From Bilabrum cf. latius (lineage: Eukaryota), in contig OZ237772.1 in assembly GCA_965178125.1 (NCBI GenBank), positions 372,001-436,000 on the forward strand: DNA of 64,000 bases. The letters are read 5' to 3'. Of the stretch, positions 1 through 60,429 are shown piece after piece. The position numbers and the translations under genes were made by a program. The notes under the pieces were generated by a model. That model did not search any database. It worked only from the letters and a program-made list of their open reading frames with translations, and was not told the origin of the DNA. Each line of letters begins with the position of its first letter. Position 1 is the stretch's first letter.

Positions 1-1425
1 GGTACTGGGACCGACACAATCCCTGCACGGCCCATTGAGCAAGCGCGGCGTCACTCGAGACCAACAGATGCCCACAGAGAGCACGAGGCGAGCATGGAAA
101 ACCATCCCGTAGTGATCGGATCCAGTGCTGACACGTCCAGCTAGTTCGAAACAGATGCAGCAGATGGGCGCATGGATTGGCCGCACGGTCCACGTCAGAC
201 GATGCAGCCCAGTGCAGCTCACGAATCGTATCCATCGACCCGCTAGGAATCGCACCTGCATCTGGGACTGTAGTCGTCGTCACAGTCCAACTCCCGGGTG
301 TCCCTGCCAACAAGGGGTGCTTCTGCTGGAGGCCCGCACTCAGTGCAAGGGGGCGACCTAGGGGCAAGCAGGGAATATCGGTCTAGGGGAGCCTCTTCTC
401 CTACGGGGGTGCATGAGCTGACCGCGGAATCCAGTGTGGATTCAAACGCGGTCAATGAGCTTGCTTTGCGAGCGGACAACGATGCCCAGCCGAGGCCCGA
501 GAGGCAATCAATTGCGGCCTTGTACGACCAGAGTTCAGCTCAGTACGGGGATGAAGATGCGAAGGGACGAACATGCACTCTCTTTGAAGCCCCTCATCTA
601 GCTTGCCTTTCGTGCCAGTGTTGCGTGAGAGATGCACGGGATGCGTCTTGCACTCGAGATGCACCATACCTCTGCAGGCTGCTTCCGTGCCGCAATGCAG
701 TGCAGCAGTCCTGGAGACTCCCTTGGCTCCCTCAAGTGGCACCATCCGCCCCTTACCCCCGCGCTGTCCACGGACTAGGGGCGGTGCTTGCTGTGCTGCA
801 GTGGGATGCACTCGAGGGAACGATGTATGCGTATACCGCGTGGTAGCATGATGCCATGGGAGCGATGGATACTGCCCGGCATCACGAGTTGAGAAGTGCG
901 CTGCTGGCAGCAGAAGTTGGCAACCGCAAGACTACGCTGGTGGGATCAGAGTTTGGCAACCGCAAGACCGCCTCTTTACCTTCTTCCGCTGCTCCATCGA
1001 GGAGCCCATCGGTCCTGTCTATAGAACCTACGGATCCACGTGGCATACACTTGGCATCCCGGTACCAGATCAACCGGCCCACGACGGCATGGGCCGACAC
1101 GAAGAAAAGCATGGATGTGTCACCCAACGCACCCAGCGCCGTGGACCAATCGAGCACAAAGGAGGGTCAAGGCAGTCGGTCTGCTGGGCCAGGGAACAGG
1201 GTAGGTCTGCTGTTCCGTCTGTTCGACGCAACGGCTGTGCTCGCGATCGTCACGTGGGCCGTTCTTTGTTCCCTGGGCCAGTGCCCCGTGGGTGCCTGCA
1301 TGCGTGACCCCGGCAGCGACCTCGCCCAGCTGCCCCCAGTGCTGCTGTTGTGGGATCGCGCGGCGGTGGCGGGGGTGGCGGTGGTGGCAAGTCTAGTTGG
1401 GAGTGTGGCTGTCCTGTACAGCTAA
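1..1425 (+). CDS. Paralog A (3' part only, 5' end outside window) of the unrecognised tandem multi-pass membrane protein family
   Basis: Frame 1 is open from base 1 to TAA 1423-1425 if TAG at 142, 244, 271 and 844 is read as sense. Near-identical to 11950-13407 (paralog C). Ends with the family C-terminal module AVLAIVTWAVLCSLGQCPVGACMRDPGSDLAQLPPVLLLWDRAAV. Confidence 0.75.
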
Positions 1426-4163
1426 ATTGGGAATAAAGGTGGCTGTATTGCTAAGGAAAGGGACGAGTTTGGCATCGGCTGGCTTTGGGTCTACTTGTTA
1501 TGACAAGAGGAACAAGCATGATTGCCAGCCTGGCTGCCAAGAGTGCCCGCAGAGGATGGCACTCGTCACGAACTGTAACCAACCCGTCGGTGGATCAAAA
1601 CAAAGCCTATCTGGAATGGTCTGAGCTTTCTTGCATGTTCTTTCTATCAACGATATTTGTTGTTATTATTGTCCATGCTTCTGGCGAAATAGGAGGTATT
1701 TTCAACAGCATACTGCACAATGCTCCACAGACTGCAGGCCTAGTTGCGAGCAACAGCACGTAGAATCATTTTCGCTGCAACGGTGAGCAACGTCATGCCT
1801 TCCGGCTTGTAGCAATAATTCAATTGTACGTATCTGCTCGCGTTGCGGATAAACTGTTCTTGTATCGCAGCAACTTGGCTAGCAAGTCCAGCAAGTGCAA
1901 GTCTTGGCGCAGGGCCTGGATATTTGCGTGCGCATCGAATCTTGGATTCGTCATTATAGAGACTTCGTAAAATAGCTGGTCAGTAGTCAGCGACGAATCA
2001 CCCGTGGCCAGGCGACCGGAGCAATGGATACCCAACTGGTTGGGCTCGCCTATCGTGGCCTGCGCTACCAGGGCGATCCCCGCCACGCAGACCGTTTCGC
2101 GGATCGTACGCCAATAATTCGTTTGTATCGATGATCGCCGTCCCTGCAGCGTCATCAGATCAACATCAGCGCCTATCGGCCGGACCGGGTCCAACGGAGT
2201 GGCCTGCATTTGCCCCTCCAGTGCGAGCAGCAGAACCGTACACTATCGAGCACTGGGTTCTGGAGACGCAGCCCAAGCACCAAGGGCTATCCCAGTACAC
2301 CAATCAGATGCAGCTGTGGTCTAGATCCAACAACGGAATCAAGTCAGGCACACAGCCAGAGTTTAGCGAGGTGGCTGCAGCGGGCTATCCCGAAACTGTG
2401 CAGCAGTCCTCCCAGCTCATGACGATGCGAAGACTTTCTCCAAGCATGGACGGTACGTGCACTGCTGTCTCGATCGTGGACTGCCCCCGCCGCACGTTTG
2501 ACCCGGACTGCACCCCCATGGACGAGCCCATCCCCCTCAACGACACGTGCCGGCAGACGGTGCTGTGGCCCAAGACGTTCGGACGAAGTAGTAGTAGTAT
2601 GCAGCGCCTTCCAAATAGAAGTACAAATGGGTCATGTCCCGCCCCAATCGTGCCTTTTGAAGGCAACATGGACGGGTACACTGCATTGCCGCCTGGAAGC
2701 AGGGGGGACCCCCGGGGCTGGGTGCATTCCACTGCAACGTGTTCCCCCAGGACCATGGATGGGAGCACTCGCGGAGAACTTGATGCACGCGGTCGAACGG
2801 CCGTGTGGACCCAGTCAGTCACGACAATCTGGCCCCCCGGCACCGTTGCCGTGCTGCCTGTGGGCCCGAATGCAACCGCTTCAGGGGATGTAGCTGACTA
2901 CCCGTGGAGGGTGAATAGAGGGCACGTGGTCACTGTGGTCAGCAATGTACCAGCTACCCACGTTTACACCCCTACTACGTCTGACAAGGCGTCATTTCAT
3001 CATAGCAATTATCATGGTACCACGTCATATGCCCCGATGTAGTGCGGGTCTGAAGTGCCGTACGTGCCAGCTGCACCAGATGCCCAGCTCGTGTTCCTGG
3101 ATGACGCCTCTTGCATCGCCTCCAGGTCGTGCAGGCCAGACGTTGGATCCTCCACCAACGCCAGCAGCCCGCAGTACAGGCAGGCCGTGGACGAGTACGC
3201 GGCATCGGACATCGCTCAGCTGTTCCCAACGAGCATGGTAGGGTGCGCGGTGTCGTATAACCTGAACCGAGAGGATTACAACTCTGACTTGCTTCCAGTA
3301 GACATGCCGATCGCGCAGAATGGGGCCGGGTTTTCCTTTGGGTCCATAGCTCGGAGCTACTTGCCAGGGCAAGTGTATTCCCCAGCACTTGCTGGACGGT
3401 GGAATGCGACTCTGTTCACCCCACGGGCACAAGGTGTCCAGCAAGGAAAAAGCAATTCTAGCAAATCGTTGCTTTATAGAGGAACCATGAGGGAATCGGC
3501 TGTTGATATCGGCTAGACATTAGGTCCTATCATGCCAAATGCTATTCTACACGGACCATACGCCGTGTACCGAGGACCGGTCCCACACCGCATGCTGCCC
3601 CCATCGCCCAATGCCACCCTGCCTCCCATCAGCAGAGGACGGTGGGCATGCGCCCGCACTGCCCCGCAAGGGTACTTCCAGGAGCGCCCCTACTGCCTGG
3701 CTATGTGCGACGATCCAAGCCACATCGCGGTGGATGTGGGTCTCGAGCGGGATGCGGGGCTGGCTGCGGCTGGTATCGGGGCAGGAATGAAGGGTGCATC
3801 ACGAGATGGGTGGGCTCTGGTGGCGAGCCAGGCGCGTCACTGGTACTCATACTGGCTTGGATATCCTGGTCTGGTGCAGGACGAGAGGCTGTACGGGAAC
3901 GATCGGCTGGCGCAGGTGCCTGCTCTGGGGTCTGTGCATCCGGTGGTGAATGGATTGTCTAGCCCTGTGTATCGAAATCTCACTGCGCCAGACGGCAGCT
4001 CAATAGGATTGCCGAGTCCGCAGATGGCATGCATGCCTGACGACGACGATGTGTGGCACCGGTCGTGGTCTCGATCGTCTCGATGGGCACAGCGCTTACC
4101 TGTAGGCAGGGGCTACGTTGAATTCAACCTGAGCTTCGATGCGGCTGCGTGGCCGGCCGCTGT
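1..4163 (+). repeat. Segmental duplication, copy 1 (3' part of A, intergenic region, 5' half of B)
   Basis: Near-identical to ~11950-16150 (offset 11949 at the start, 11987 at the end, with small in-frame indels). The match includes the intergenic spacer and the intron. Confidence 0.9.
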
Positions 4164-6705
4164 GCCTCTCCACGATGGCGCACAGGCTCCAGGTCTGAAC
4201 TGGCCAATACCGTCGACTGTGTAGTTGCAATGGCTCGAAGCAGACGTAGCGATGGATCTAAGCGATTGTGCTAGGAACACCGATGGGTGGGCCGTTCATG
4301 TTTCCGCGGTGCACGTCAAGCCAGCGATGCCGGCTCCCGCAAACTCATCGAGATGCGAGCCAGGACCCAGGAGCAAGGGCTGGTGCCAGATATTGCCGAT
4401 GACACTCGTTGTGGTCGCCTCGCCTGTCGTGTTTCCAAACGACACGCAGCATGGCGCGAGCGCGCCATCCTGGGCCAGTCATGAACCTGTCCACCAGACT
4501 ATGTCTAATTCCGCTCCCATGCAACGGATCCTGACCGCAGGCAGCGTGCTGCAGCGAGTGGTGAGGAGGATCAGGGGAGGACCAGATGCTGGGCTGGCCG
4601 GCGTGTGGATGCTGGCCGCAGAACCTGAATCAGTGCATATTACCGTGCAGTTGCCCTGCATTCCGCTCGCCCGTGACCTGGCAGGCTCTGCGTGTGGGTC
4701 GGTAGATGGGGCTATTTTTCTTCATTTTTTCGATGTTGGTTTGAACCGCGCTGTGGTAGTCTGCTGTACCGTCGCGGTCGCATTGCTGCTGTTTCTATGG
4801 TTTCGGTCTGCATGGCTCGATCATCCAATAAGTGTTGGGTTAATCCGGTTTGTGTTGGGGGCGCTATCGCAAGTGACAGCCTGGATCGCTGGGCTGGGCC
4901 TCTTGTAGGTTGAGCTGTTCGTGCCTGCCGCTGTGCTGCTGGCTTGGCTGACATTCGGGCTCCTTGCTAGGCTAGTAGGAGTACTCGTTAGGGGCGCGGC
5001 GGAGCGTGGTGCTTTGGATGCTAATACAGGACGACTTTCAACAGGGTGCAAGCGTGTAGCTTACGACAGTCCGATGCGGCCCGGCTTAAGGTCACCACAA
5101 GCAGGCGTGAATGAGTCTGATGGTGGTGACTCCGCTCGGCAAGCCTTCAATGGAGTCGAAGCATGCCGTCATTCCAATAATTCAGATTCGAGTATAAGAC
5201 CAGCTACCACTGCACTGCATGCGACCAAGTATTCTTCTGACCTTGGTGGTATCGTAATAGAAGCAGGAGAGGAGCTTGAGGTGGGACACAGCGAAAACGA
5301 TGATGGTGATGATGACACGGGTGAGCTAGCGCGGCGGGGTGACAGCAATGGCATGATGCATGGATCGGTTGCCACCTCAAGAGTAGCTGGTCGGGGGCGC
5401 GCCATCCATGGTCCTTCCGCGGACAGGTCGCAGCTACTACACATGGGAGCCTCGGCACGATCCACACCGGCATAGAGACACATGCGCGAAACGGGGGCAA
5501 TGGCACGGCAGGTCTACGGCGGTGTCCGGGTGCAGCTTGTGCTATCCGACATTCCCAGTGCAACCGAAGACGAGGAAGAGGAAGAGAACGTCAGTGAAGA
5601 CACTGCAGGGAGTTGCGACCAGCATGCATTAGAGCAGGCTCAGCATCCAAGTCAACTTGTTGGCGCGACCTCGGATGATTATGCAAATGACTAGGTCTGC
5701 CCTCCTAGCAGTAGCAATCAAGATGTTTCTCCCGGGGCCAGTTTTACGTCTCTCCCGTGCCCCTCCTCTTCCGTCTCCCGCATGGTCGAGCTACGGGACC
5801 AAGGCAGCAGGGCCCCAAGTGGGGACTAGTACGTCCTCGCCAGGAACGTGAGGCCAGAGGGCCACAATGCGCCCGCACAATGGCATGCCCGCACACGGCC
5901 TGTTGCAACTGAGGTGGACGGCCCCGTGCTTCTGCCAGTGGTCGACGATTGTGAAATAGGTTACGGTGGCTACTACCCCCAGCTCTCACCGGTTTGCTAG
6001 CACATGGCCGTTGCTGCCTCTGTGCTATACTGGGGGGCAGGGCAGGACATAGAGACGGCGATGGAAGAGTTGTCAAGGGAGCGACTAGCTGCAGTAGCTG
6101 CAGTAGGAATCGGTCGTTCTGGAGCATCCATGCCTTAGCTTGTCCCGTTCCTACCGTCTGCGGGAGGGCTAGGGAATGGTATGGATGAATCACAGGCCCT
6201 GCAGTGGAACGGTCTCGCTGTGCCAGGCCAGCCGATTCATGCAAGCACGAAACCGGCGGTCGAAGGGAATTCACGGTAGGTATAGGCACCGGTGCCAAAG
6301 CCCCATAGGTCCTCTGGTTCCTCTGGGTGGAACGTGCGCGCAAGAAGACCCAACTCAGGACAAGAGCAGCTGTCTAGCTCCGATTCAGAACGCGTGCGCA
6401 TGCCATTGGAACAAGGTCCCGCCATCTACACCTGCCGATGCCCCAGTACCACCATGTGCGCGGCGGATGTGCTTGCGATGCTCGCGATCGTCATGTGGGC
6501 CGTTCTTTGTTCCCTGGGCCAGTGCCCCGTGGGTGCCTGCATGCGTGACCCCGGCAGCGACCTCGCCCAGCTGCCCCCGGTGCTGCTGCTGTGGGATCGC
6601 GCGGCGGTGGTCGGGGTGGCGATAGCGTCTTGGGGGCTGGGCCATGTGGCTCGCGCCGTCGTTTGTACTGGATGTGCCGAGTCTTCCAGGCTAGCCTGTA
6701 GTTGA
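1635..6705 (+). CDS. Paralog B, ~1660 aa: signal peptide, Cys-containing ectodomain, ~3 TM, long low-complexity loop, C-terminal 2-TM hairpin; join(1635..1782,1871..6705)
   Basis: ATG 1635 MFFLSTIFVVIIVHASG is signal-peptide-like. Phase-1 intron GTGAGC 1783..CGCAG 1870. ORF-track pieces 2131, 3055, 3532, 4225, 4921, 5482 and 6292 share one frame and are separated only by TAG (~14). First TGA is at 6703-6705. Confidence 0.75.
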
Positions 6706-7897
6706 ACGCACATTGGGCATGGCGTAAGGGCTGCAAGCTGTCAAGTTGCAACCAGAATACCATAATAATACCAGAATAATTTGTAGGGTAAAGAAACCAC
6801 ACAAAATAATGTGCAACCACGAATTGCCGAGGAGGAGAAGAGGAGGGAGGACGCAGAGAGAGCGGAACAGCAACAGGAAGCAGCAGCAGTGGCAGCGGCA
6901 GGTGAGGCGGCAGAGGCCGCAGCACTCGCAGCAGTCGTTGAACAGACCGAAGCTGAAGCCGACCAGCAGCAGGAAGAATTGCCGGTCGCACTCAACCTGC
7001 AGGGCGGAATCCGGGGAGGAGCAGTCGCAGCTGCTGACCCTGGCGAAGCACCTCCTCAAGAGATCGAGCCCGAGGATCCAGGAGCTCCAGCTGCAGCACA
7101 ACCCCACCACGGCGGGGTATAGGTGCTTCTGGATCATCCTGAGTGAACTCGGGAGTCTCGATGAGTGCCACAGAGATTAAGTGTTGGACGAGGGTTCGGT
7201 GCGAGATCTCGAAGGTGATGATGATGATTGAATGTAACGATACGACTTTTCACGAATGGCTGTCACACCCCCAAGGTGTTACAGAACAACGCGATCAAAA
7301 GACCCGCAGCCCCCCCCTAAAGCAAAGGCCAAAGCCTCAAGAGAAAGCAAAAGAAAGAAAGAAGAACCCCTCGTCCCGAGGAGGATTTCCGAAATATCAT
7401 GGTGCTACACATACCGAGACGATCACCCTTAGACTCAGCCACTCATCCACCAAAGGACCAGAGGGAAGGAGAGTGAGCCCGTGCCATCCGCCACCAGCGG
7501 GACGTCCATGTACGACGTAGGTACCCCCTTTCACGCAAGACACAACGAAGCGAAGTCGCCATCTCACGCGCCCAGATCCTCTCAAGAGTGTGCATGAGCC
7601 CTCTAGGGCGAGCCACCCGATGTCCCCTCCGATCCTGAGCTCGCATAGCAGCATACAGGTCATCCGATGCGCTCGCAGTCCGGCCTCGCACCGAGGCCCC
7701 AGTCCACCACCTGCAGGCAGTCCAGGACGGAAACGTTCTGATCTTTACACTCAGCTCATCAATCACCCGTGTCGCAAGCCGTACCAATCCAACAGAGGCG
7801 CTAGAGCGGGCAACCTGCCCAATACTTTTGTGACGTGTGCTTCCGGTATGCCGGAGTGTAGCGCCGACACGTCGAGGCAGGGAGTAGCAACACCACT

Positions 7898-10800
7898 ATG
7901 ATGTATGCTAGTGTCATTATATTATGCATCACTTGTTTTGCTGAGGTAGTTTTAGTCAGCTCGCACAAGCCGGTAACATTAGGGATGGCTCGATCAATGC
8001 CTCAAACTACCAAGTTTTGGTCTGACGCGCCCGGAGATAGCAGTAATCGTTGTAACTGTGAGGAGCAGTTTTCCTTATTAAGCAAATGGTCGCGTGTGTA
8101 ATTATTCATCCTCAGGAGTTAACCTGTGCTCTGTCACTGATGACTTTCCTTGCAGCAACATGGCTGCTTCAAGATGACCTGTCGGCGCTCGGGCTCGCTC
8201 CCAATCACACTACCCGAACCCGTAGGATATTGCAGTACAATGGTACGAAATTATTGAAATACAGGTCAAGCTGCTAGATGGTGGATCACCCATGGCCTGG
8301 CATACCATACTCGGGGGTGCTGCAAGGTTGGCTACCGTTTTATTGGACAGCCAGTCCAAGACGACCGCCTAATCGTGCAAAAAATGTATCCCATAAAGTT
8401 TCATTTGCCGCGATGGCGACAGTACCTGCAGCATCATCGCCCTAGCGACCTGTCATAACGGCAAGATAGAGCACCCAGTGGCCGAGCATCGCTCCTCCGG
8501 TACGGGCGGCTGAGCCGTACACAATAGAGCACTGGGAGCTGTCAACCAGACCACGAGAGCAAGGATTATCATTACTTACAAACCAGATGAGGCTCTGGTC
8601 TAGGAGCAACACTAGCACTCCACCTGGCAAACCTGCCAAGCTAGAGGAGGTTGGAGCTGCTGGTATCACCGGCGATGTGCAGGCCTCCTCTCAATTGATG
8701 ATATTGAGGAGGGGAGGCGCAACAATGAACGGGATATGTGCCTCGGTCTCGATCGTGGACTGCCCCCGCCGCACGTTTGACCCGGACTGCACCCCCATGG
8801 ACGAGCCCATCCCCCTCAACGACACGTGCAGGCAGACGGTGCGGTGGCCCAAGACGTTCGGACGTGGTAGCAGTAGTACGCAGAGCCTTCTAAATAGAAG
8901 TACAAATGGGTCATGTCCCGCCCCAATCGTGCCTTTTGAAGGCAACATGGACGCGTACACTGCATTGCCGCCTGGAAGCAGGGGGGACCCCCGAGGCTGG
9001 GTACATTCCACTGCAACGTGTTCCCCCAGGACCATGGATGGCAGCACGCGCAACGGCTTATCTGCAGTCGCGAGAACGGCCGTGTGGACCCAGTCAGTCA
9101 CGACGATCTGGCCCCCCGGCACTGTAGCCGTGCTGCCAGTTGGCCCGAATACAACCGCTTCAGGTGATGCAGCTGACTACCCGTGGAGGGTAAATAGAGG
9201 ACACGTGGTGATGACAATCACGAACGTTCCTTCCACTGCGATATCTCCGAACGAGACGATCTCGTTGCAACAGAGACCACCAAGCCATTAGAATGGTAGG
9301 GGCTCCGGTCATGGGAAGCACGATGGAACTGCAAGCACGCCTGTGCTTGACGACGTTGACAAGCAGGACCTGCGGACGGTATCTTATGCTGCCATGACGT
9401 GTGGGCTGCCTATTTATTTTGTACCAGCTGCACCAGATGCCCAGCTCGTGTTCTTAGATGACGCCTCCTGCATCGCCTCCAGGTCATGCAGGCCAGACGT
9501 GGGATCCTCCACCAACGCCAGCAGCCCACAGTACAGGCAGGCCGTGGACGAGTACGTGGCATCGGACATCGCTCAGCTGTTTCCCGCGGGCATGGTGGGG
9601 TGTGCATTGTCATACGATCTGAACCGAGAAGATTACAACTCAGACTTGCTCCCAGTAGACATGCCGATCGCACAGAACGGGGCCGGTTTTTCTTTTGGGT
9701 CAGTCATGCACAGCTACTTGCCAAGCAATGGGTACCCGTATACACCTTCGACTAAAGGCCGATGGGCGCTCAACGAAATTTCAGGAACTGCAATGAGCCT
9801 GCCTGGTCTCAAAGCTGAGCCTGTAACTCAAAATAGCAGCCATGGGCCTACGAAGTCAGGGGGGTCCTCGTAGGCATATGTGCAACCATTGTTCCCTCAA
9901 GCAATGATCCACGGCCCATATGCCGTGTATCGAGGACCCGTCCCGCACCGCATGCTGCCCCCATCGCCCAATGCCACTCTGCCTCCCATCAGCAGAGGAC
10001 GATGGGCATGCGCCCGCACTGCCCCGCAAGGGTACTTCCAGGAGCGCCCCTACTGCCTGGCTATGTGCGACGATCCCAGCCACATCGCGGTGGATGTTGG
10101 TCTCGAGCGGGATGCGGAGCTGGCTGCAGCTGGCATTGGGGCAGGGGCAGAGGGTGCATCACGAGATGGGTGGGCTCTGGTGGCGAGCCAGGCGCGTCAC
10201 TGGTACTCGTACTGGCTTGGATATCCTGGTCTGATGCAGGACGAAAGGCTGTACGGGAACGATCGGCTGGCGCAGGTGCCTGCTCTTGGGTCTGTGCATC
10301 CGGTGGTGAATGGATTGTCTAGCCCTGTGTATCGAAATCTCACTGCGCCAGACGGCAGTTCAATTGGATTGCCTAGTCCGCAGATGGCATGCATGCCTGA
10401 CGACGACGATGTGTGGCACCGGTCGTGGTCTCGATCGTCCCGATGGGCACAGCGCTTACCTGTAGGCAGGGGCTACGTTGAATTCAACCTGAGCTTTGAT
10501 GCGGCTGCGTGGCCGGCAGCTGTGCCGCTAAGCACCCGGGGGGCAGCACCAGGTCTGGACTGGCCTATCCCTACGGCGGCCCAGCTGGAGTGGTTAGAGG
10601 ATGATATAGAAATGGATGTGGCTGACATGGTGACGGCAGAGGGTCGGGTGCCTGGCGCATCTTGCGCTGCTAGGATTATCTAGGTCAAGACGGGAGCATC
10701 TATTCCCGTCACTGCGGGTTGCTCACCAGGGGACAAAGAAGAGGGGTTTTGTTAGTCGCTTCCCACAAGTGTATCCGTCCGACTGTTGTGTGACCCCCCT

Positions 10801-13407
10801 CCCCCGGTAGTTCAGACGCACACGTTGCCACGTGTCAGGCAGCGGATCCTTTCCGCAGGCAGCGTGCTGCAGCGAGTGGCGAGGAGGATCAGCGGAGGAC
10901 CAGATGCTGGGCTGGCCGGCGTGTGGATGCTGGCCGCAGATCCGGAGTCCGTCCGGGTTTGTATTGAGCTGCCAAGGCTTGCAACGATACAGCGTGGGAA
11001 CGGCGGCTTGTCAAGTGCATTGCAGTGTGGTGCAGACCTTACGAGCTCTTAGCTCGTTGGTGCATCTTTTCGATCAATCTCAGCGGTTGCCGTGTGTGCC
11101 ATTCTGGCTATCCTGTTCGTCGGAATGATGGTCCTTTCGTGCTGGTGCGATGATGGTGGTCGCAACCATCTGTCCGTTAGTCAGCCTGCGGTACTGTTGT
11201 GCATTCAATTAGTTTGGTGGTGTGCTGTGATTGGATTGGGCGAAGCTGAGCTGTATCGGCCTGCGGTAGCTCTCGGAATCATGCTTGGTTTGACTGCAGT
11301 GGGCCGAGCAACCGCTGTAGTGTGCTTCGTGTATCCGTTCTGTCCCTCGTGCAGCCAAAGCCAACGGCGAACAAGACAGCACTCAGCCGTAGATAGTAGT
11401 GTTGAGCTGTATCAGATCAAGGAGGAGGACGACGAAGACTCAAGCGTATTCGGCACCACGGATTTCAACTAGGACTGGCAATCACGGATGCGGGAGGCCA
11501 ATCGATTGGGTGACAAGGCAGCACATGGCACGCTTCGTACAAAAGCGCTGGTGCCTGTACCGCGGGGTGTCGTTGGCATCCCCTCTCCTCAAAGTGTTGC
11601 AGCACGCTTTGACAAGCAAGCTGGCACTATGAACACAATAGCCTTAGACTAGCAGCGGCCCGGCCTCTAGAGCTCGGGCCACAGCGACAACTGCCTCGAC
11701 CTGCAACCTGGAAGACACGATAGCAATGATATATCGGAAGAGCATCAGCGACCCAGAGGCCTCAGTATGGACGAAGTCGATTCAGTGCGGCGCGGGCAGC
11801 TGCGTGTGCACGCAGTGCAGCCTCCGTCCTTACGGTCCATCGGTGGGATGCGAGGACACGCTCTTATGGGTACTCGGCACCTGTCGAAGATGCTAACCAT
11901 CCACAGTGATGAGACCTCCACCACTGATATAAGAACGGAATCAGGTACTGGTACTGGGACCGACGCAATCCCTGCACGGCCAATTGAGCAAGCGCGGCGT
12001 CACTCAAGACCAACAGATGCCCACAGAGAGCACGAGGCGAGCATGGAAAACCATCCCGTAGTGGTCGGATCCAGTGCTGACACGTCCAGCTTGTTCGATA
12101 CAGATGCAGCAGACGGGCGCATCGATTGGCCGCACGGTCCACGTCAGACGATGCAGCCCAGTGCAGCTCACGAATCGTATCCATCGACCCGCTAGGCATC
12201 GCACCTGCATCTGGGACTGTAGTCATCGTCAGAGTCCAACTCCCGGGTGTCCCTGCCAACAAGGGGTGGTTCCGCTAGAGGCCCGCACTCAGTGCAAGGG
12301 GGCGACCTAGGGGTCAGCAGGGAATATCGGTCTAGGGGAGCCTCTTCTCCTACGGGGGTGCATGAGCTGACCGCGGAATCCAGTGTGGATTCGAACGCGG
12401 TCAATTAGCTTGCTTTGCGAGCGGACAACGATGCCCAGCCGAGGTCCAAGAGGCAATCAATTGCGGCCTTGTACGACCAGAGTTCAGCTCAGTATGAGGA
12501 TGAAGATGCGAAGGGACGTACCGCGGAATTGGGCAAATGTGGGACATGCACTCTCTTTGAAGCCCATCATCTAACTTGCCTTTCGTGCCAGTGTCGCGCG
12601 AGAGATGTACGGGATGAGTCTAGCACTCGAGATGCACCATGCCTCTGCAGGCTGCTTCCGTGCCGCAATGCAGTGCAGCAGTCCTAGAGACTCCCGTGGC
12701 TCCCTCAAGTGGCACCATCCGCCCCTTACCCCCGCGCTGTCCACGGACTAGGGGCGGTGCTTGCTGTGCTGCAGTGGGATGCACTCGAGGGAACGATGTA
12801 TGCGTATACCGCGTGGTAGCATGATGCCATGGGAGCGATGGATACTGCCCGGCATCACGAGTTGAGAAGTGCGCTGCTGGCAGCAGAAGTTGGCAACCGC
12901 AAGACTACGCTGGTGGGATCAGAGTTTGGCAACCGCAAGACCGCCTCTTTACCTTCTTCCGCTGCTCCATCGAGGAGCCCATCGGTCCTGTCTATAGAAC
13001 CTACGGATCCACGTGGCATACACTTGGCATCCCGGTACCAGATCAACCGGCCCACGACGGCATGGGCCGACACGAAGAAAAGCATGGATGTGTCACCCAA
13101 CGCACCCAGCGCCGTGGACCAATCGAGCACAAAGGAGGGTCAAGGCAGTCGGTCTGCTGGGCCAGGGAACAGGGTAGGTCTGCTGTTCCGTCTGTTCGAC
13201 GCAACGGCTGCGCTCGCGATCGTCACGTGGGCCGTTCTTTGTTCCCTGGGCCAGTGCCCCGTGGGTGCCTGCATGCGTGACCCCGGCAGCGACCTCGCCC
13301 AGCTGCCCCCAGTGCTGCTGTTGTGGGATCGCGCGGCGGTGGCGGGGGTGGCGGGGGTGGCGGTGGTGGCAAGTCTAGTTGGGAGTGTGGCTGTCCTGTA
13401 CAGCTAA
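7898..13407 (+). CDS. Paralog C, ~1800 aa; join(7898..8057,8156..13407)
   Basis: MMYASVIILCITCFAEVVLVSS is signal-like. Phase-1 intron GTGAGG 8058..TGCAG 8155 lies at the same protein position (after RCN) as in B and D. ORF pieces 8587, 9343, 9880, 10786, 11092, 11767, 12415 and 12829 share one frame and are joined by TAG (~16). Ends TAA 13405-13407. Confidence 0.75.
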
Positions 13408-16150
13408 ATTGGGAATAAAGGTGGCTGTATTGCTAAGGAAAGGGACGAGTTTGGCATCGGCTGGCTTTGGGTCTACTTGTTATGACAAGAGGAACAAGCA
13501 TGATTGCCTGGCCAGCCTGGCTGCCAAGTGTGCCTGCAGAGGCTGGCACTCGTCACGAACTGTAACCAACCCGTCGGTGGATCAAAACGAAGCCTATCTG
13601 GAATGGTCTGAGCTGCCTTGCATGTTCTTTCTATCAACGATATTTGTTGTTAGTATTGTCCATGCTTCTGGCGAAATAGGAGGTATTTTCGACAGCATAC
13701 TGCACAATGCTCCGCAGACTGCAGGCCTAGTTGCGAGCAACAGCACGTAGAATCATTTTCGCTGCAACGGTGAGCAACGTCATGCCTTCCGGCTTGTAGC
13801 AATAATGTAATTATACGTATCTGCTCGCGTTGCGGATAAACTGTTCTTGTATTGCAGCAACGTGGCTAGCAAGTCCAGCAAGTGCAAGCCTTGGCGCAGG
13901 GCCTGGATATTTGCGTGCGCATCGTATCTTGAATTCGTCATTAGAGAGACTTCGTAAAATAGCTGGTCAGTAGTCAGCGACGAATCACCCGTGGCCAGGC
14001 GACCGGAGCAACGGATACCCAACTGGTTGGGCTCGCCTATCGTGGCCTGCGCTACCAGGGCGATCCCCGCCACGCAGACCGTTTCGCGGGTCGTACGCCA
14101 ATAATTCGTTTGTATCGATGATCGCCGTCCCTGCAGCGTCATCAGACCAACATCAGCGCCTATCGGCCGGACCGGGTCCAACGGAGTGGCCTGCCTTTGC
14201 CCCTCCAGTGCGAGCAGCAGAACCGTACACTATCGAGCACTGGGTTCTGGAGACGCAGCCCAAGCACCAAGGGCTATCCCAGTACACCAATCAGATGCAG
14301 CTGTGGTCTAGATCCAACAACGGAATCAAGTCAGGCACACAGCCAGAGTTTAGCGAGGTGGCTGCAGCGGGCTATCCCGAAACTGTGCAGCAGTCCTCCC
14401 AGCTCATGACGATGCGAAGACTTTCTCCAAGCATGGACGGTACGTGCACTTCTATCTCGATCGTGGACTGCCCCCGCCGCACGTTTGACCCGGACTGCAC
14501 CCCCATGGACGAGCCCATCCCCCTCAACGACACGTGCAGGCAGACGGTGCTGTGGCCCAAGACGTTCGGACGTGGTAGCAGTAGTACGCAGAGCCTTCCA
14601 AATAGAAGTACAAATGGGTCATGTCCCGCCCCAATCGTGCCTTTTGAAGGCAACATGGACGGGTACACTGCATTGCCGCCTGGAAGCATGGGGGACCCCC
14701 GGGGCTGGGTGCATTCCACTGCAACGTGTTCCCCCAGGACCATGGATGGGAGCACTCGCGGAGAACTTGATGCACGCGGTCGAACGGCCGTGTGGACCCA
14801 GTCAGTCACGACAATCTGGCCCCCCGGCACTGTAGCCGTGCTGCCAGTTGGCCCGAATGCAACCGCTTCAGGGGATGCAGCTGACTACCCGTGGAGGGTG
14901 AATAGAGGACACGTGGTCACTGTGGTCAGCAATGTACCAGCTACCCACGTTTACACCCCTACTACATCTGACAGGGCGTCATTTCATCATAGCAATACTC
15001 ATGGTACCACGTCATATGCCCCGATGTAGTGCGGGTCTGAAGTGCCGTACGTGCCAGCTGCACCAGATGCCCAGCTCGTGTTCCTTGATGACGCCTCCTG
15101 CATCGCCTCCAGGTCATGCAGGCCAGACGTGGGATCCTCCACCAACGCCAGCAGCCCACAGTACAGGCAGGCCGTGGATGATTACGTGACATCGGACATC
15201 GCTCAACTGTTTCCCATGGGCATAGTGGGGTGCGCGGTGTCGTATATCCTGAACCGAGAGGAGTACAACTCTGACTTGCTTCCGGTAGACATGCCGATCG
15301 CACAGAACGGGGCCGGTTTTTCCTTTGGGTCCATAGCTCGTAGCTATTTGCCAGGGCCAGAGTATTCCCCAGCACTTGCTGGACGGTGGAATGCGACTCT
15401 GTCCACTCCACGGGCACAAGGTGTCCAGCAAGGAAATACGAATTCTAGCAAATCGTTGCTTTATGAAGGAACCATGAGGAAATCGGCTATTGATGTCGGT
15501 TAGACATTAGGTCCTATCATGCCGAATGCTATTCTACACGGCCCATACGCCGTGTACCGAGGACCCGTCCCGCACCGCATGCTGCCCCCATCTCCAAATA
15601 CCACCCTGCCTCCCATCAGCAGAGGACGATGGGCATGTGCTCGCACTGCCCCGCAAGGGTACTTCCAGGAGCGCCCCTACTGCCTGGCTATGTGCGACGA
15701 TCCCAGCCACATCGCGGTGGATGTGGGTCTCGAGCGGGATGCGGGGCTGGCTGCGGCTGGCATCGGGGCAGGGGCAGCGGGTGCATCACGAGATGGGTGG
15801 GCTCTGGTGGCGAGCCAGGCGCGTCACTGGTACTCGTACTGGCTTGGGTATCCTGGTCTGGTGCAGGACGAGAGGGTGTACGGGAACGATCGGCTGGCGC
15901 AGGTGCCTGCACTGGGGTCTGTGCATCCGGTGGTGAATGGGTTGTCTAGCCCTGTGTATCGAAATCTCACTGCGCCAGACGGCAGTTCAATTGGATTGCC
16001 TGGTCCGCAGATGTCATGCATGCCTGACGACGACGATGTGTGGCACCGGTCGTGGTCTCGATCGTCCCGATGGGCACAGCGCTTACCTGTAGGCAGGGGC
16101 TACGTTGAATTCAACCTGAGCTTCGATGCGGCTGCGTGGCCGGCAGCTGT
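11950..16150 (+). repeat. Segmental duplication, copy 2 (3' part of C, intergenic region, 5' half of D)
   Basis: Direct sequence match to 1-~4163. Similarity to B drops after ...FDAAAWPAAVPL. Confidence 0.9.
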
Positions 16151-19100
16151 TCCTCTCGGAAATCGCGGCTCGCCGCCGGGTCTCAACTGGCCTGTCCCAA
16201 CAGCGGCCCAGCTGGAGTGGCTAGAGGATGACATAGAAATGGATGTGGCTGATATGAGCGGTGGGATGTAGTGCACTACGAATGCACTTGCACTCGGAAA
16301 TGGTCCTGCTGAGCCAGGCCAGTGGCCCTGTTCTGAGGCCGAGAGAGAGACGGGATGGTGTCAACGGCTGCCAACCAACGTATCAGTCCAGTTGGTCTGT
16401 GATGGAGACTAGCCGTCACCCACGGCTTCAACTGGCAAGGATGTCTCGAGACTTCCAGCAGACAAACTCAAACAGCGGGTCCTGACCGCAGGCAGCGTGC
16501 TGCATCGAGTGGCGAGGAGGATCAGCGGAGGACCAGATGCTGGGCTGGCCGGCGTGTGGATGCTGGCCGCAGATCCTGAATCCGTCCGGGTTTGTATTGA
16601 GCTGCCTGAGCTTCCTGCGTATGCCGGTATACGATATGGACTCGAGTGCAGTAGCACGACTCAGGACCTGAGCTCCCGCTTTGCGCACGGCGTAATCGCC
16701 GCTGGTGGTGGTCGCACTGCCCTAGTGCTATCGATGGTTTACCTGGCTGGACTCGTCACGATCGCCGCAATCGTGAGGTGCCCGCACTCGTCCTCGCTGT
16801 TCCTTCCATGGGTCGCGCTTTTGGGTCAGGGATTTGGATGGTGTGCGGTGGGTGCACTGCATAGCGCTGCGCTTGGCCTTCCTGCCATAGCGCTCGGGGC
16901 ATGCATGGCCGCTGGTATTGTGGTAAGGTCCGTTGTGCTGCTTGCCGGCGTGTACCCGCTGTCTGACTGCAGAGACATCAACTTGTACAGTCCGCGCGAA
17001 GCTACAGACAAGTACGATTGGTTGAGAACGTATGAGGACGGCGGAAATGATATCCAGCTGGCAGTTATCGCATCCGAGGACGTGTAGACTGGGGCTGGGG
17101 CAGGTGAGGTTGAAGGGGTCGACGAAATTGCAAGGGTCTAGTTTGGTCCCACTAGCAGGACCACGAGCAGGACAGGCGACAGGACTGGCCATACTCCACC
17201 GAGACAGCCATTGCGCGCTAGTAAAGCGGTCAGCAGGATCGGGTAGCCCCCACTCCCACGTAGCGGCAGGCACTCCCAGAGCGAACTCTCCGCACAGCTG
17301 CAGCCACTTCAAGAGTCAGAGGCTGGGTTGGATGGACCGAGCCACCGTGCAGCGCTCCGTAGGACGCACACAGTTTCACTGCAAACTGGCAAGTTGGTCA
17401 GGAAAAGGCAGCGCTCAACACCCTCAGCGGAATCTACGCCATCCAATCGAAGTAAGGGAACGACAGGTGGCAGCGGCAGCACCAGCAGCCAGGGCAGCTA
17501 GTCCGACATCGTGCACGACGTGCTATTCGGACCCCCGCCTGGCGGGTAGAATACGAAGGGGCATGGCACAACTGGAGACCTGCCAGGTGCTATGGTCTCC
17601 TTAGATACGCCAATGCCGGGCCTTTCCCCGCGGATTGTGGCTGCGCGAAGCACCCAGCCCCATATGCCGGGCCTCCATTCTGCCGGTCTGAGGAGGAAGG
17701 GATCCGACAGGCGACTCGAGAAAATGCTCACGATCACAAGCGTGGGGTCTTCGCAGGAGGAGGCGGTAGCTACTGGTACTGACACTGGCACTTCTCCGCC
17801 ATCCAATGACTCTTCATCTTCACTAGTGCGACAGAGCAGTGCCGGCGACACGCCCCAATTCCGGCTACAAAGTCGAGGTGGTAGTGTCCCGGGAGCACAG
17901 CGCGGCCCAAACCGATGGGCCGTGGACCTCAGTAGGGGCTCTGGTATGGGGACTGGCCTGGACGCCGTGCACGGGAAGTCGCAGCCCATCGTTCCGACAG
18001 AAGCGGGAAGCAACACGACCAATCCGAAGCTCACTCACGGTCTGTCCACAGCTCCTGGCAAACGGGGCAGCACCCCGCTGGCTGCATCGCTCGAAGCATC
18101 TAGCATGCCGGGCTCTTCCTCCCGCGATGGGTCTCATCCATCCTCTGACCCCCTGCTGCACCTCAACGCTCGCAGCCTCAGGCCTCAGCAGGAGGCGTCG
18201 TCTGGCTCTGGAAGCCACGGCCAGCAGTCGACGAGTACCTTGAATCGCGGGCTAGGACAGGGTGACGCAAATGGAACGAGCGAGGAAGTGACCGAGAGCC
18301 GAGATTTGGGTTCCAGCTTAGGACCCTCCGATGTAATTCGCAGGCAGCTGGCTGAGTTGAACATGAGCAAGCTGGACACTGCCCAATAGGCCCGTTGCAT
18401 GCCATGTTGGTGCGGCTGTGCTCATTTTCAGCTGCCTTGGGCTGGTCTCCCTTGGCTACCGCCGATGGCACACACTGGTGCATATCCTCGCGCTGTCCAC
18501 GGCCTGGGAGCGGCACTTGCTGTGCTGCAGTGGGATGCACTCGAGGGAACGATGCAGGCGTACGACATCTGGCGGCATAGGCAGTTGCGGTGCTGCAGCT
18601 AGCGACTCGAGTCGTAGGCCTTTGGCACGAGACAGTCTCTGCTGGATTCTGACAATGCAGCAGACATCGTAATGCCAGTTGGGGGTACTGCACTCCATAA
18701 TGATGATGCCACTAACCGGGAGGCGGCAGTCGCCACACCGCGGAGCGCAGAGGCCACAACAGAGGCTGGCATGGCACACGGAGGCCGTTTGCCTGGGAAG
18801 TCGGCAAATCAACAAAGCCGCGCTGCGCATACAACGACGACATCTAGAGAGGAACGCTCACCGCTGCGCGAAGGGATGAGAACTTTTTGGAGCATTCGGT
18901 CAATGCGGAGGGATTGCATAATCGCTAGGCTTTTTCGGCTGTTTGACGGCATTGCTGTGCTCGCGATCGTCACGTGGGCCGTTCTTTGTTCTCTGGGCCA
19001 GTGCCCCACGGGTGCCTGCATGCGTGACCCCGGCAGCGACCTCGCCCAGCTGCCCCCAGTGCTGCTGCTGTGGGATCGCGTGGCGGTGGCGGGGGTGGCC

Positions 19101-19175
19101 ATGGTGGCAAACACGCTATGTGCAGCGACAACTGTGGCGTGGTCGCTCGCTGCAAGGGAGATTTTGCTTGTTTGA
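13622..19175 (+). CDS. Paralog D, ~1820 aa; join(13622..13769,13858..19175)
   Basis: Same signal peptide and intron (GTGAGC 13770..TGCAG 13857) as B. ORF pieces 14118, 15042, 15519, 16497, 17592, 18399 and 18672 share one frame and are joined by TAG (~14). Ends TGA 19173-19175 after the family C-terminal TM module. Confidence 0.75.
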
Positions 19176-19846: not shown

Positions 19847-22800
19847 ATGGCCACGAAACCATGGCCCAGAGCTCGGTTCGCGATCGATCGGTGAGCAATG
19901 CCGCGTGCGTACTTTGCAGGTGCTAACAACATCTCTACACTACTTCGGCTCCACTCTGTGCCAGTGAATGCCTTGATTGGCATCAAAGCGATGTACGTAT
20001 CCTCTACATCCATGATTTTAACTTGTGCAGGGGCGGTACATTTACCGACGTGTATGCGGAGGTGCACGAGAAGGATGGATCAGTCAAGCCGATCGTAAAG
20101 AAGCTTTTGTCAGTGGATCCATCCAACTATAAAGACGCACCCAGGGAGGGAATCCGCAGAGTACTAGAAGAGATTACTGGTAAGCCGCATCCTCGGGACA
20201 CGCCACTGGACACTTCCCACGTGGATTCCATCAGAATGGGGACGACGGTGGCCACGAATGCTCTCTTGGAGCGACAAGGAGCACGCACCGCCCTGATCGT
20301 CACACGCGGGTTCGCTGACCTACTCGAGATTGGGACACAATCCCGCCCTGACATTTTTGACCTCAAGGTATCCACCCGGCCCCCGGTGTACTCTGTGATC
20401 GTGGAGGCCAGGGAGCGGGTGCTGCTCTCATCCGCTCCCCATGTGGACGAGGCAAACGACCCCGTGCTGATCACCCATAGCAAGTTGAATGATAGCACGG
20501 ATAGCGGAAGCGGAAGTGGGGAGGGTGGCAAGGCCGGTGGAACCGCCCGCCCTAGGATCAGGTGCCCCAACGGAGACGACGTCGTCGTGCTGGAGAAGCT
20601 TCACGAACCTTCGCTCAGGAGCCAGCTGCAGCGGGCGCGGGAAGCTGGCTGCACCAGTGCAGCCGTTGTGTTCCTGCACAGCTACGCCTATGGAGAACAC
20701 GAGAGGAGAGCCGGCGAGATATGCCGAGACATTGGATTCGAGCACGTCTCTTTGTCCCACGAGGCCATGCCTGCCGTGAGGGCAGTGCCGCGGGGTCACA
20801 CGGCCGCTGCCGATGCATACTTGACTCCGGTCATCCGGACGTACTTGCGGTCGTTTCTAGGGGGCTTTGATTTCGCATCTGGGGACCAGGCAGGGGAATC
20901 CGCTGGCGATGGGGTTGTGCGTCTGCCTCGGGGGGCGCCCGAGGTCCTCTTCATGCAATCGGACGGTGGATTGACGCACGTGGAGGGGTTCAGCGGGCAC
21001 AGGGCAGTGCTGAGCGGGCCTGCCGGTGGGGTGGTGGGGTATGCTCTGGCGACGTATGGGCAAGCAGAAGAAGAGGAAGAGGAGGAGGAGGAGGAGGAGG
21101 AGGAGCTCGGTCAGGTAGCTGGAGCGGCAGCAGAGTCCGTTGACTCCAAGAAGTTTCCGGGGAGGAAGTGCCGCCCGGTGGTTGGATTTGACATGGGCGG
21201 CACCAGCACTGACGTGTCCAGGTACGGCGGCGCCTTCGAGCAGACGCAGGAGTCCGAAACTGCGGGGGTGCAGATGCAGGTGCCCCAGCTGGATGTGCAC
21301 ACAGTGGCTGCTGGCGGGGGCAGCAGGCTCGTATTCAGGGACGGTCTATTCGCTGTGGGCCCCGAGTCTGCAGGGGCGCACCCGGGTCCAGTCTGCTACC
21401 GTAAACCCGGTGGACTGCTGGCCGTGACTGACGCGAATGTGGTGCTGGGTCGGCTGCAGCCATCCATGTTCCCAGCGATCTTCGGACCCTCAGAGGACGA
21501 GCCTTTGGATGCTGAGGCAGCCACGAGTGCCATGGAAGGTGTGACGAGTGAGGTGAACCGGCACCGGCGTGCTGCATGGGAGAGGTCGCAGGGCGGTACC
21601 GGCGCGGGGGCGATGGCAGCACCCGCTGACCTCACCACGGAGCAGGTGGCGTCGGGGTTCCTGAGGGTGGCCAATGAAGCCATGTGCAGGCCAATCCGGG
21701 CGCTGACTCAGATGCGGGGGCATGACGTGTCCACGCACGTGCTGGCCTGCTTCGGCGGTGCGGGGGGGCAGCACGCCTGTGCCGTCGCCCGCAACCTCGG
21801 CATCCGTACGATCTTCGTGCACCGGTACAGCGGTATCCTCAGCGCGTTTGGGATTGGGCTGGCACCGGAGGCAAGGGAGGCGCAGCGACCCACCACCAGC
21901 GTGCTGGCCGTGCCTGCTGGTAGTGTGACGGGTGAGGAGGGCGATGTCGTGCGCCCGACCAGCGAGTCGGATGTGCTTGAGGGGCTTTGCAAGGACCTGA
22001 TGTCGGTGGGCCAGCAGGCCGTGGAGCTGCTGGACTAGGGAAGAAAGGAGAAGTAGGCTGGGGATGGTGATGGTGGTTGTGGTAAAGAGGCAGGGTCAGG
22101 GACAGGGGCGGAGCGCGGGGCCTGCGTGACCATGTACGTGAACCTTCGATTCAAGGGCACAGACACCGCCAAGGCAGTTCCGCTTCGCCTCGGGCTGGGA
22201 AGTGGGGCTGGCAGCGGGTCTGCTTCCGGATCTAGCGAAGGTGTCGATTATGAGCAGCAGCAACAGGAAGAAATAGAAGAGGAAGAGACTCCTTGGGAGG
22301 CCCTGGCCGGTGCAGAGGGCTTGGGGGCAAACGAGGCAGGCAAGGCGCTCGTGGCGGCACTACAGGCCGCACCCGAGGCATTCACTCGGGCTTACGAGAG
22401 AGAGTACGGCTTCGTGCTGAGGGGCAGGGAGGTGATCGTGGACGATGTGAGGGCGAGGGCGGTGCGGAGGGGGAGGGGGCTGGTGCGGATGGAGCTGCCT
22501 GACGCTGGGAAGGACGCCCCGCTGCCCGCCCCCGAGGCGACTGTTTCGGTGTATTTCGACTCCGAATCCGGGGGTGCAGACGGTGGGGGTTCTGTGGGCG
22601 GGGCCCGCCTGCCAACCCCTGTCTACGCGCTCCGATCGATGCCTCACGGGCCGCGCCTCCCGGGCCCCGCCATCCTCCGCGATGACACCTCTACTGTCGT
22701 GGTGGAGCCCGGCTTCGTGGCGCAGGTCACGAAGCACGGCGACATTCGGATCGACGCCGCCAAGCCAGGCGCTGGCAAGCGCGATGTGACGACGGGAGGA

Positions 22801-25020: not shown

Positions 25021-25207
25021 GCAAGATACAGAGGGCCGGGCGAGCGCACAGGGACCGGAGAGCGATGAACTGTGATTCTCATCAACGCATGTGCGGCAAA
25101 TATGACAATAAGTTTGGGTATGAAAACGTGATAGACATTCCTCTGCCTAAATATATTGCTTGTGTTGGCTGTTCATCCAATACGGAAGGAAGTCCTTGCT
25201 CGCTCCA

Positions 25208-25754: not shown

Positions 25755-25960
25755 AGCGATTGGGTGCCACTAAGATAGTGTCTGAAGCAATATATCTCCT
25801 GTGTTGCGCTTTCGTGTTTTTCACACTGCACGTTACAATGTACATATTTCGGAGCCAAAAAGCCACGTCAGGGATCTTCTTTCTCCTTTCACATACTGGT
25901 ATAGAGATGCAGACGGTATTTACATATGCATAATTGATTCTTACCTTATATACTGGTAGG

Positions 25961-30708: not shown

Positions 30709-30934
30709 GGTGAATTTCCGATAGACCTGCGGACCAATGTTGGGCCGGAAGATGGATCGTACTTTCACTTCCCCGTATCGCACCTTTAAATGTCCTTTGG
30801 TTGTTGGCTTGATGTGTTCAGAAGAAGCACAATGCAACCAATAGCTGCGTTGGGAATCGTCGTCACAGGTTCAAAGACTAGACACGGCCCGACGGCCATA
30901 CTGGTGCACTGAAAAGCAAAGGGATGGCACAGTA

Positions 30935-53700: not shown

Positions 53701-54046
53701 TGACCGGTCCGGAGCGGCAGGCAGGGGTCAGAAGAAGCAGCAGCAGGGCATGAAAACCACTGCCAGCCGCATGCGACCGCAGGCCTCGTCCAGCTTTGAG
53801 GTGGGGGCCGTGAACTTTGCGGACATGACGGAGGGGCAGCTGCAGGCGCACGTCGAGGCGCAAGGGGCGGTGAAGGAACTCCGATCGGATCTGGCATGTC
53901 TCACGAAGCTGGTGGTTGTGCTCGCGATTCTGCTCGTGCTCGCTCTCGCTGCCGTGTTCGCCGTGCTCGCCCTTGTGGTTGGGCAGGGACGCGAGCTGGA
54001 TCAGGTGCAGAGCGATGTGGGAAGCCTGGCAGCGAGCAGTGGGTGA
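41734..54046 (+). CDS. Voltage-gated K+-type channel with cyclic-nucleotide-binding domain (EAG/HCN/CNG superfamily) and very long low-complexity C-terminus, ~3933 aa; join(41734..42116,42313..42402,42528..43132,43323..54046)
   Basis: S1-S3: WDVLL..FTAIALPYEIAF, DLVFLADM, YLSSWFWIDLISVIPYD. S4: LRMLRLFKLIKLLRVVRASR. Filter TIG-Y-GD is rebuilt across intron 43133..43322. C-linker and CNBD: MFIIQKG...G*IFGEEMIL. The last exon has 13 TAGs and no TAA/TGA over 10.7 kb. The channel core is secure; the full-length tail is less certain. Confidence 0.85.

Positions 54047-55452: not shown

Positions 55453-55485
<33 letters not shown>

Positions 55486-60393: not shown

Positions 60394-60428
<35 letters not shown>
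60394..60428. repeat. (CTG)n trinucleotide microsatellite, ~11 units, downstream of the 54193-60378 stop
   Basis: Seen directly in the sequence. Confidence 0.9.

Positions 60429-60429
<1 letters not shown>

Follow-up and report, generated by a model that had tools for sequence, protein, structure and literature searches.

How does a cell translate genes whose reading frames are crossed many times by the codon TAG? The question is raised by a 64,000-nucleotide stretch of a contig deposited under Bilabrum cf. latius (OZ237772.1, positions 372,001 to 436,000; assembly GCA_965178125.1), referred to here at its full length as the window, and especially by a family of large paralogous genes at its beginning. 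Under the standard code, the window falls apart into open reading frames (ORFs) of 100 to 350 codons. With TAG as sense, the paralog region flagged by a first-pass annotation yields ORFs of 1620, 1773, and 1781 codons, and eight further long ORFs appear across the window, the longest of 3666 codons; with TAA as sense, hardly any extra open frame is gained, and with TGA as sense, both strands open indiscriminately. Our data make it very probable that UAG is read as glutamine while UAA and UGA remain stops, the pattern of NCBI translation table 15. In support of this assignment, TAG is found as a sense codon in frame, is unchanged in contigs from spliced sequence, stands at Gln columns of a divergent protein family, and is used in the same way on a metagenome contig (L001).

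The window is eukaryotic nuclear DNA with a GC content of 54 to 68%, and its source is a GC-rich, intron-poor microbial eukaryote with a variant genetic code. The 11 long ORFs comprise 16,982 codons and contain 93 in-frame TAG (an upper count, as some 5' parts of the ORFs may be untranslated), no TAA, and no TGA. Each of the 11 genes carries TAG in frame, and each is open only with TAG as sense. In the 5-oxoprolinase and choline-transporter-like genes, Pfam domains and homology extend through TAG, placing it inside genuine coding genes. The ORFs end in TGA nine times and in TAA twice. From the CAA:CAG ratio, approximately 24 in-frame TAA were expected in the 11 ORFs and none was observed; therefore, TAA is not a sense codon. 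A code in which UAR means Gln (NCBI table 6), which we also considered, is rejected by this deficit and by the TAA ends of paralogs A and C. The continued use of TAA and TGA as terminators is seen in the 11 ORF ends, in the end of a cullin gene on L001, and in the end of the oxoprolinase, where the C termini of 86 of 120 homologues align 7 residues before the TGA, behind three TAGs.

The paralogs, termed A to D, are arranged as follows.

1..1425, plus strand: paralog A, truncated by the window start to its 3' part; 4 in-frame TAG, TAA end
1843..6705, plus strand: paralog B, 1620 codons; 13 in-frame TAG, TGA end, no Pfam family
8086..13407, plus strand: paralog C, 1773 codons; 16 in-frame TAG, TAA end
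13830..19175, plus strand: paralog D, 1781 codons; 13 in-frame TAG, TGA end

Paralog A is nearly identical to the tail of paralog C. The family (window 1843-19175; P0126-P0129 and P0250-P0310) is large and fast evolving and has no Pfam match; its members are putative surface proteins. They have a domain of approximately 800 residues that is rich in Cys and NxS/T, as well as hydrophobic segments and a long disordered tail; the C terminus is hydrophobic and conserved. In protein collections, the family is represented solely by unnamed fragments, which come from Logan, ENA, and JGI assemblies. An AlphaFold2 model of the family domain (26 rows) reached a mean pLDDT of 41.9, too low for a fold search or a fold name, and a piece of the gene with an open frame under table 11 found no usable match in the ESM Atlas.

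The first-pass annotation had claimed that TAG exchanges with CAG or CAA at three aligned sites of these paralogs, and all eight codons involved lie where it placed them, in the peptide contexts it described: TAG at 4222 (NWPIPSTV-TAG-LQWLE), 10753 (GFC-TAG-SLPT), and 8443 (VPAASSP-TAG); CAG at 10582, 16209, and 4387; and CAA at 16362 and 2161. A further CAA is present in paralog D, at 14148. These sites and a fourth one are listed below.

4222..4224, plus strand: TAG in B, motif WPxPxxx[Q]L; CAG in C (10582) and D (16209)
8443..8445, plus strand: TAG in C, VPAASSx[Q]; CAA in B (2161) and D (14148), Gln in three more family members
10753..10755, plus strand: TAG in C, G(W/F)C[Q]; CAG in B (4387), CAA in D (16362), and S, S, H in three distant members
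3040..3042, plus strand: TAG in B (also 15027 in D), SYxPM[Q]CG; ACG in C, Gln in P0126, P0254, and P0262, column otherwise variable

The support that decides for glutamine is database-wide and came from widening the family beyond the window. A profile of the conserved N-terminal domain, searched against 1.84 billion representative proteins, returned 63 matches, and a word-index search of shorter proteins returned just four family members, two of which end exactly at the TAG 4222 column and one of which has Gln at the TAG 3040 column. The aligned set comprised 65 divergent fragments, the 63 profile matches and two word-search fragments not among them. At the 4222 column, Gln is present in 11 of 11 other members and Glu in none; at the 8443 column, where B and D count as one, Gln is present in 4 of 4. 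At both columns, every other covering member has Gln. At the 10753 column, Gln is confined to B and D. The columns of TAG 3040 and 3514 have Gln in the nearest relatives, amid variable residues.

Ten TAG columns fall on profile positions, and the 81 residues opposite them include 22 Gln, 3 Leu, and 1 Glu. Against a background of 4.1% Gln, the binomial probability of 22 in 81 is 9e-13, a value to be read with the cells not being independent and two columns giving 15 of the 22. Dominance of glutamate (GAR codons) opposite TAG in a larger alignment had been named as an outcome that would refute Gln; the count is against glutamate, with 1 Glu to 22 Gln. Log-odds from column frequencies, with the oxoprolinase site included, were +6.7 nats for Gln, -5.0 for Lys, -9.9 for Glu, -13.5 for Leu, -16.9 for Tyr, and -19.7 for Trp.

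The ends of the database fragments provided us with a second view of the same columns. These fragments are standard-code ORFs, so that a C-terminal end inside the domain was taken as an in-frame stop; ends were placed if the unaligned tail was at most 8 residues, extended without gaps, which left 36 evaluable ends. Gln-majority columns (at least 60% Gln) make up 8 of the 763 columns, and nine of the 36 ends lie exactly on them (P = 1e-10; counted by five distinct columns, 2e-5), four database fragments ending exactly at the TAG 4222 column. Of the other ends, a single one lies on a Glu-majority column, and Asn-majority columns account for one or two. Several family fragments derive from contigs much longer than their ORF.

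One such contig could be read directly. When the family was sought in JGI metagenome, GTDB genome, and viral contigs, a single contig was found, L001, a metagenome contig of 9790 nt with 59% GC. The stop that ends fragment P0259 is a TAG at 8255-8257, in a column with Gln in 15 of 19 members, and the frame beyond it stays homologous (NTRGLGIGG versus NGAGFSFGS). A second TAG, at 9029, falls on a column with Gln in 14 of 21. The contig also carries a cullin gene (1022-1900, minus strand) that is open only with TAG as sense and ends in TGA; its last 60 residues give a match to the complete Cullin_Nedd8 domain, ending 8 residues before that TGA. The TAG usage of L001 therefore indicates that a relative uses the same code.

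Beyond the paralogs, the window holds eukaryotic genes, namely, a fused 5-oxoprolinase, a choline-transporter-like gene, a TPR/DnaJ gene, a group-1 glycosyltransferase, and a channel with a cyclic-nucleotide-binding domain, together with two long ORFs without a Pfam match.

20023..25020, plus strand: 5-oxoprolinase gene; 6 in-frame TAG, TGA end, 5' intron 19890-20029
26593..30009, minus strand: gene without Pfam match; 6 in-frame TAG, introns 30036-30310 and 30430-30595
30575..33613, plus strand: TPR/DnaJ gene; 4 in-frame TAG, all in its weakly conserved 5' part
33823..36021, minus strand: group-1 glycosyltransferase gene; 3 in-frame TAG, at 35455, 34030, and 33880
36818..40531, plus strand: choline-transporter-like gene; 2 in-frame TAG, at 38789 and 39896, 5' intron 36448-36841
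42520..54046, plus strand: cyclic-nucleotide-binding channel-like gene; 2 TAG in the ion-transport-domain exon (42520-43329), 13 TAG in the long ORF (43046-54046)
54724..60378, plus strand: low-complexity long ORF without Pfam match; 13 in-frame TAG, TGA end

From 60400 to 64000, the GC content falls to 54%, and neither code gives a long ORF; an ORF of 235 codons (60724-61431) looks EF-hand-like.

Is TAG still present in the message? Four public sequencing runs were compared with the window from 19801 to 39800, at the level of contigs and not of raw reads, so that rare variants could be hidden. Contigs of the runs X6, X7, and X8 show GT..AG joints (CT..AC for genes on the minus strand), at 19889/20030, 25431/25523, 30035/30311, 30429/30596, and 36447/36842, and the deep DNA run X1 shows none; X6 to X8 therefore hold spliced, RNA-derived sequence, an origin taken from the joints and not from the run records. 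The joints define five GT-AG introns of 91 to 394 nt (19890-20029, 25432-25522, 30036-30310, 30430-30595, and 36448-36841), all near the 5' ends of genes, with long intronless exons downstream. A small minus-strand gene at approximately 25151-25790 is known solely from spliced contigs.

Eight TAGs are unchanged in the contigs of X6 to X8, at 23389, 28897, 28372, 28309, 35455, 31064, 31229, and 38789. A single contig (X8 record 23) both skips two introns (30036-30310 and 30430-30595) and spans the TAG at 28897. At the TAG sites, the DNA run X1 is in agreement, and no joint removes a TAG. Editing, splicing-out, and assembly error are thereby excluded at these eight sites, where TAG is part of the mature mRNA.

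Several observations weigh against glutamine, and many of them fit glutamate. UAG might be read as Glu, the meaning that UAR has in peritrich ciliates and Blastocrithidia, with TAG at Gln columns representing a tolerated Gln-to-Glu replacement that arose through CAG-to-TAG mutation. We regard this as improbable, and the case for it begins with the window itself. In a MAFFT alignment of paralogs A, B, C, and D, 40 columns contain at least one TAG, and the three sites cited by the first-pass annotation are a selected subset of these. Across all of them, another paralog shows Gln opposite TAG in 6 columns (10 cells), compared with 10 columns (10 cells) for Glu; with a requirement of at least 35% identity over the 20 flanking columns, 3 columns remain for each residue (6 cells with Gln, 3 with Glu). 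By itself, then, the window cannot separate Gln from Glu, and its pattern is no better than chance with respect to Glu. The earlier statement that Gln is supported without any database consequently falls, as the four paralogs alone end in a tie of 3 versus 3 columns.

A recent tandem duplicate within the array points the same way. Positions 1-4205 and 11950-16192 are 95.4% identical over 4243 nt, with a period of approximately 11.95 kb, and the duplicated segment runs from the tail of one paralog through the intergenic spacer into the following paralog, of which it includes the first 2.4 kb. Four of its ten TAG sites differ between the copies, two of them as TAG/GAG (1957/13944 and 12406/457), one as TAG/TTG (142/12091), and one as TAG/TGG (12685/712). 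None of the ten exchanges with CAR, and the expectation that TAG and CAG would exchange at a synonymous-like rate is not borne out. An apparent excess of TAG turnover in the duplicate (Fisher p = 0.009) was inflated by the choice of sites and was dropped; with equal ascertainment for every codon, TAG (4/10) is no outlier (GTT 5/11, GTA 4/10, overall 19%). Past the duplicated segment, B and D are strongly divergent, so that the array is a mosaic (duplication or gene conversion).

Conserved housekeeping sites add to the case for glutamate. The oxoprolinase TAG at 23389 lies within the conserved Hydantoinase_B motif SMPPxSxxLx[x]EGAAI, in a column with E in 71, D in 28, and Q in 21 of 120 homologues. 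E or D is present in all of the nearest homologues and in every homologue shown from stramenopiles and green algae; of the 18 named ones shown, only Gorilla, Nk52, and the unnamed EukProt entry m53371 have Gln. One TAG of the L001 cullin stands opposite the Glu of human CUL4A "PAELIAK" (all five alignments shown being to CUL4A constructs), a residue that we take to be conserved in other cullins; this is the clearest single site fitting Glu rather than Gln. In comparisons with solved structures, the glycosyltransferase TAG at 34030 is opposite D, D, Y, Y, and E and that at 33880 is opposite E. Channel TAGs are opposite N and M and opposite V/K and S/Q. The only Gln match of this kind is the TAG at 43853 in the cyclic-nucleotide-binding domain, with Gln in four of five solved chains, three of which are one protein. 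The structure comparisons for the glycosyltransferase, the channel, and the cullin involve variable columns or a tiny sample. The housekeeping sites are single, mostly variable columns, and Glu-to-Gln replacement is conservative. The few conserved ones lean toward Glu/Asp, and three or four single sites fit Glu; they are outweighed by the counts across the family but are the reason for leaving a small probability to glutamate and to ambiguous decoding.

These counts have weak points of their own. Of the nine fragments ending on Gln columns, P0259 is the one whose stop codon was read directly; the other eight are P0126, P0127, P0250, P0309, P0256, P0271, P0275, and P0277. Moreover, CAG-to-TAG is a transition, and regardless of the meaning of TAG, mutation alone would enrich it to some degree at Gln columns. 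Trp columns, which TGG-to-TAG transitions could equally reach, have no events (0/211), a control weakened by Trp being less replaceable. Because of this possible mutational enrichment, we compared shares of codon usage. Counting TAGs and fragment ends together as events, 12 of 112 (10.7%; 12/(100+12)) were at Gln-majority columns, and columns without a majority had 32 in 8343 (0.4%). If TAG encodes Gln, it should account for 93 of 764 Gln codons of the window (12.2%), in agreement with the observed share; within the family itself, up to 19% of the Gln codons would be TAG. If TAG encodes Glu (93 of 974 Glu codons, 9.5%), approximately 5.4 events are expected at Glu-majority columns, and 1 in 57 was seen. 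Together with the single Glu among 81 residues in the wide alignment, its absence from all 11 members at the 4222 column, and its log-odds, this tally decides against glutamate.

The composition around TAG provided no help to glutamine. Neither a 20-way likelihood nor self-adjacency singled out any residue, Gln included, and Glu ranked below Gln; the test was dropped because low-complexity runs are built from one codon. TAG overall is not enriched beside Gln, and none of the other window genes contains internal repeats that pair TAG with another codon. In the channel-like gene, at 49286-49380, two TAGs lie within the Gln-rich stretch AAMxQHAMQQQWVAWYxQQQQQ beside CAG/CAA runs, an arrangement suggestive of Gln.

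Somewhat less probable still is that there is no clean reassignment at all and that UAG is subject to near-cognate read-through, to ambiguous decoding (for example, mostly Gln and some Glu), or to a context-dependent role as a stop. The mixed signal, Gln in the fast-evolving family and Glu/Asp at a few housekeeping sites, would suit this reading, as would the scan of the window and L001 (74 kb), in which no tRNA gene and hence no tRNA with the anticodon CUA was seen. The 64-kb window has no Rfam match, and neither it nor L001 contains an eRF1 gene; the evidence for glutamine is drawn from DNA, contigs, and alignments. Inefficient read-through, however, would yield no full-length proteins from genes with up to 16 TAGs each (93 in 11 genes). 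Also opposed to this reading are the window genes, none of which ends at TAG where its homologues end, the C-terminal oxoprolinase motif encoded behind three TAGs, and the share of TAG at Gln columns, which equals the expected codon share.

A different residue altogether is very unlikely, be it Leu (as in exLh and some phyllopharyngean ciliates), Lys, Tyr, or Trp. The TAG/TTG and TAG/TGG pairs of the recent duplicate could be taken to favor it, as could the oxoprolinase tail TAG (residue 1648), which was placed, in a region of doubtful alignment, on a column of V 58 and L 28, and the second rank of Lys in the log-odds. All four residues nevertheless have negative log-odds; events number 0 of 248 at Leu, 0 of 154 at Tyr, and 0 at the Trp columns mentioned above; Leu accounts for 3 of the 81 residues opposite TAG; and none of the four occurs at the E/D/Q column of the oxoprolinase in 120 homologues. 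That TAG is simply untranslated, through pseudogenes, unrecognized introns, editing to CAG, or sequencing errors, has next to no probability, as it is favored by nothing beyond the fact that the standard code makes these codons in-frame stops and is contradicted by the absence of TAA and TGA beside 93 TAGs, by the eight TAGs unchanged in spliced-run contigs and confirmed in X1, by the lack of any joint skipping a TAG, by conserved domains running on across TAG, and by the same usage on the independent contig L001.

With glutamine as the preferred meaning of UAG, a mechanism can be proposed. A tRNA-Gln with the anticodon CUA, one mutation away from tRNA-Gln(CUG), would pair with UAG and not with UAA; glutaminyl-tRNA synthetase would charge this tRNA-Gln(CUA), and the N-terminal domain of eRF1 would lack efficient recognition of UAG. 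We propose these steps because of the analogy with the codes described in PMC5304391 and PMC11687900, as far as those accounts go.

The window code represents a further case of the already known table 15 pattern. According to PMC5304391, UAG encodes Gln in the fornicate Iotanema spirale, with UAA and UGA as stops, and a T32G change in its eRF1 is reported in the same source. The likeness is close, as UAG alone has passed to Gln, UAA is a terminator, and a tRNA-Gln(CUA) is predicted in both; I. spirale, however, is an anaerobic metamonad known from a transcriptome, whereas the window oxoprolinase groups, weakly, with Cafeteria. The phyllopharyngean ciliates Hartmannula sinica and Trochilia petrani are likewise described as reading UAG as Gln while keeping UAA as a stop (PMC11687900). 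In that description they prefer UAA as the stop, whereas nine of 11 gene ends in the window are TGA. The window further differs from these ciliates in being a contiguous stretch of at least 64 kb with 54 to 68% GC and spliceosomal introns. Ciliate genomes are AT-rich.

Codes in which UAR means Gln (NCBI table 6) are described for many ciliates, hexamitin diplomonads, and dasycladalean and other ulvophyte green algae (PMC2984419, PMC5304391). They likewise turn a stop into Gln through a tRNA-Gln one anticodon mutation from the standard one, but TAA is also Gln in them, whereas the window has two TAA-ended genes and no in-frame TAA. Leu is the meaning reported for UAG in the rhizarian exLh and in an uncultivated phyllopharyngean lineage, where UAG alone is reassigned and UAA and UGA are stops (PMC5304391, PMC11687900); our log-odds and the empty Leu columns speak against this residue. 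exLh, too, was first found as an unnoticed organism within the data of another. UAR is reported to mean Glu in peritrich ciliates and Blastocrithidia nonstop (PMC12153298, PMC11687900). Such codes similarly place in-frame amber codons in nuclear genes, and a few housekeeping TAG sites in the window and L001 would fit them, but they reassign UAA too, and the family tally rejects Glu. Finally, crAss-like and other gut phages are described as using code 15, with TAG as Gln (PMC9523058); their genomes belong to phages of bacteria, whereas the window genes are eukaryotic and have spliceosomal introns.

Which lineage carries the code is a more tentative matter. In a tree of oxoprolinases, the window gene stands beside Cafeteria (SH-aLRT 96), outside a fully supported green-algal clade and outside opisthokonts. 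This placement may serve as a weak lead only, both branches being long and GC-rich. The oxoprolinase homologues listed have at most 60% identity, none being close; among shorter proteins, the best 120 of 1287 relatives are all distant, and no fragment of the window's gene is among the matches listed. The oxoprolinase stretch (20023-25020) has 0.25 to 1.00 of its words in eight runs with four organism labels from four studies, and the organism may live with, or contaminate, several differently labeled samples.

There is a little less than an even chance that this is an independent origin of a UAG-only code in a GC-rich, intron-poor protist outside ciliates and fornicates, perhaps a heterotrophic stramenopile near bicosoecids. 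In a literature search that covered few subscription journals, no nuclear UAG reassignment was found reported in stramenopiles. The lineage has so far been seen only as unnamed contigs, with the family present in Logan, ENA, and JGI assemblies.

A separation of UAG from UAA is rare in nuclei; PMC5304391 and PMC11687900 name only Iotanema, exLh, one oligohymenophorean ciliate, and a few phyllopharyngeans. Every further case is a test of whether a tRNA(CUA) together with an eRF1 blind to a third-position G suffices to split UAG from UAA. The accumulation of fragment ends on Gln columns furthermore provides a way to detect a recoded stop from protein data alone. For the organism itself, standard-code annotation cuts genes at every TAG, and it is because the standard code breaks genes at TAG that the relatives of the paralogs appear as fragments (63 of 63 profile matches, their lengths ranging from 61 to 546 residues). 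Until table 15 is applied to this lineage, its gene calls, protein databases, and binning will be in error.

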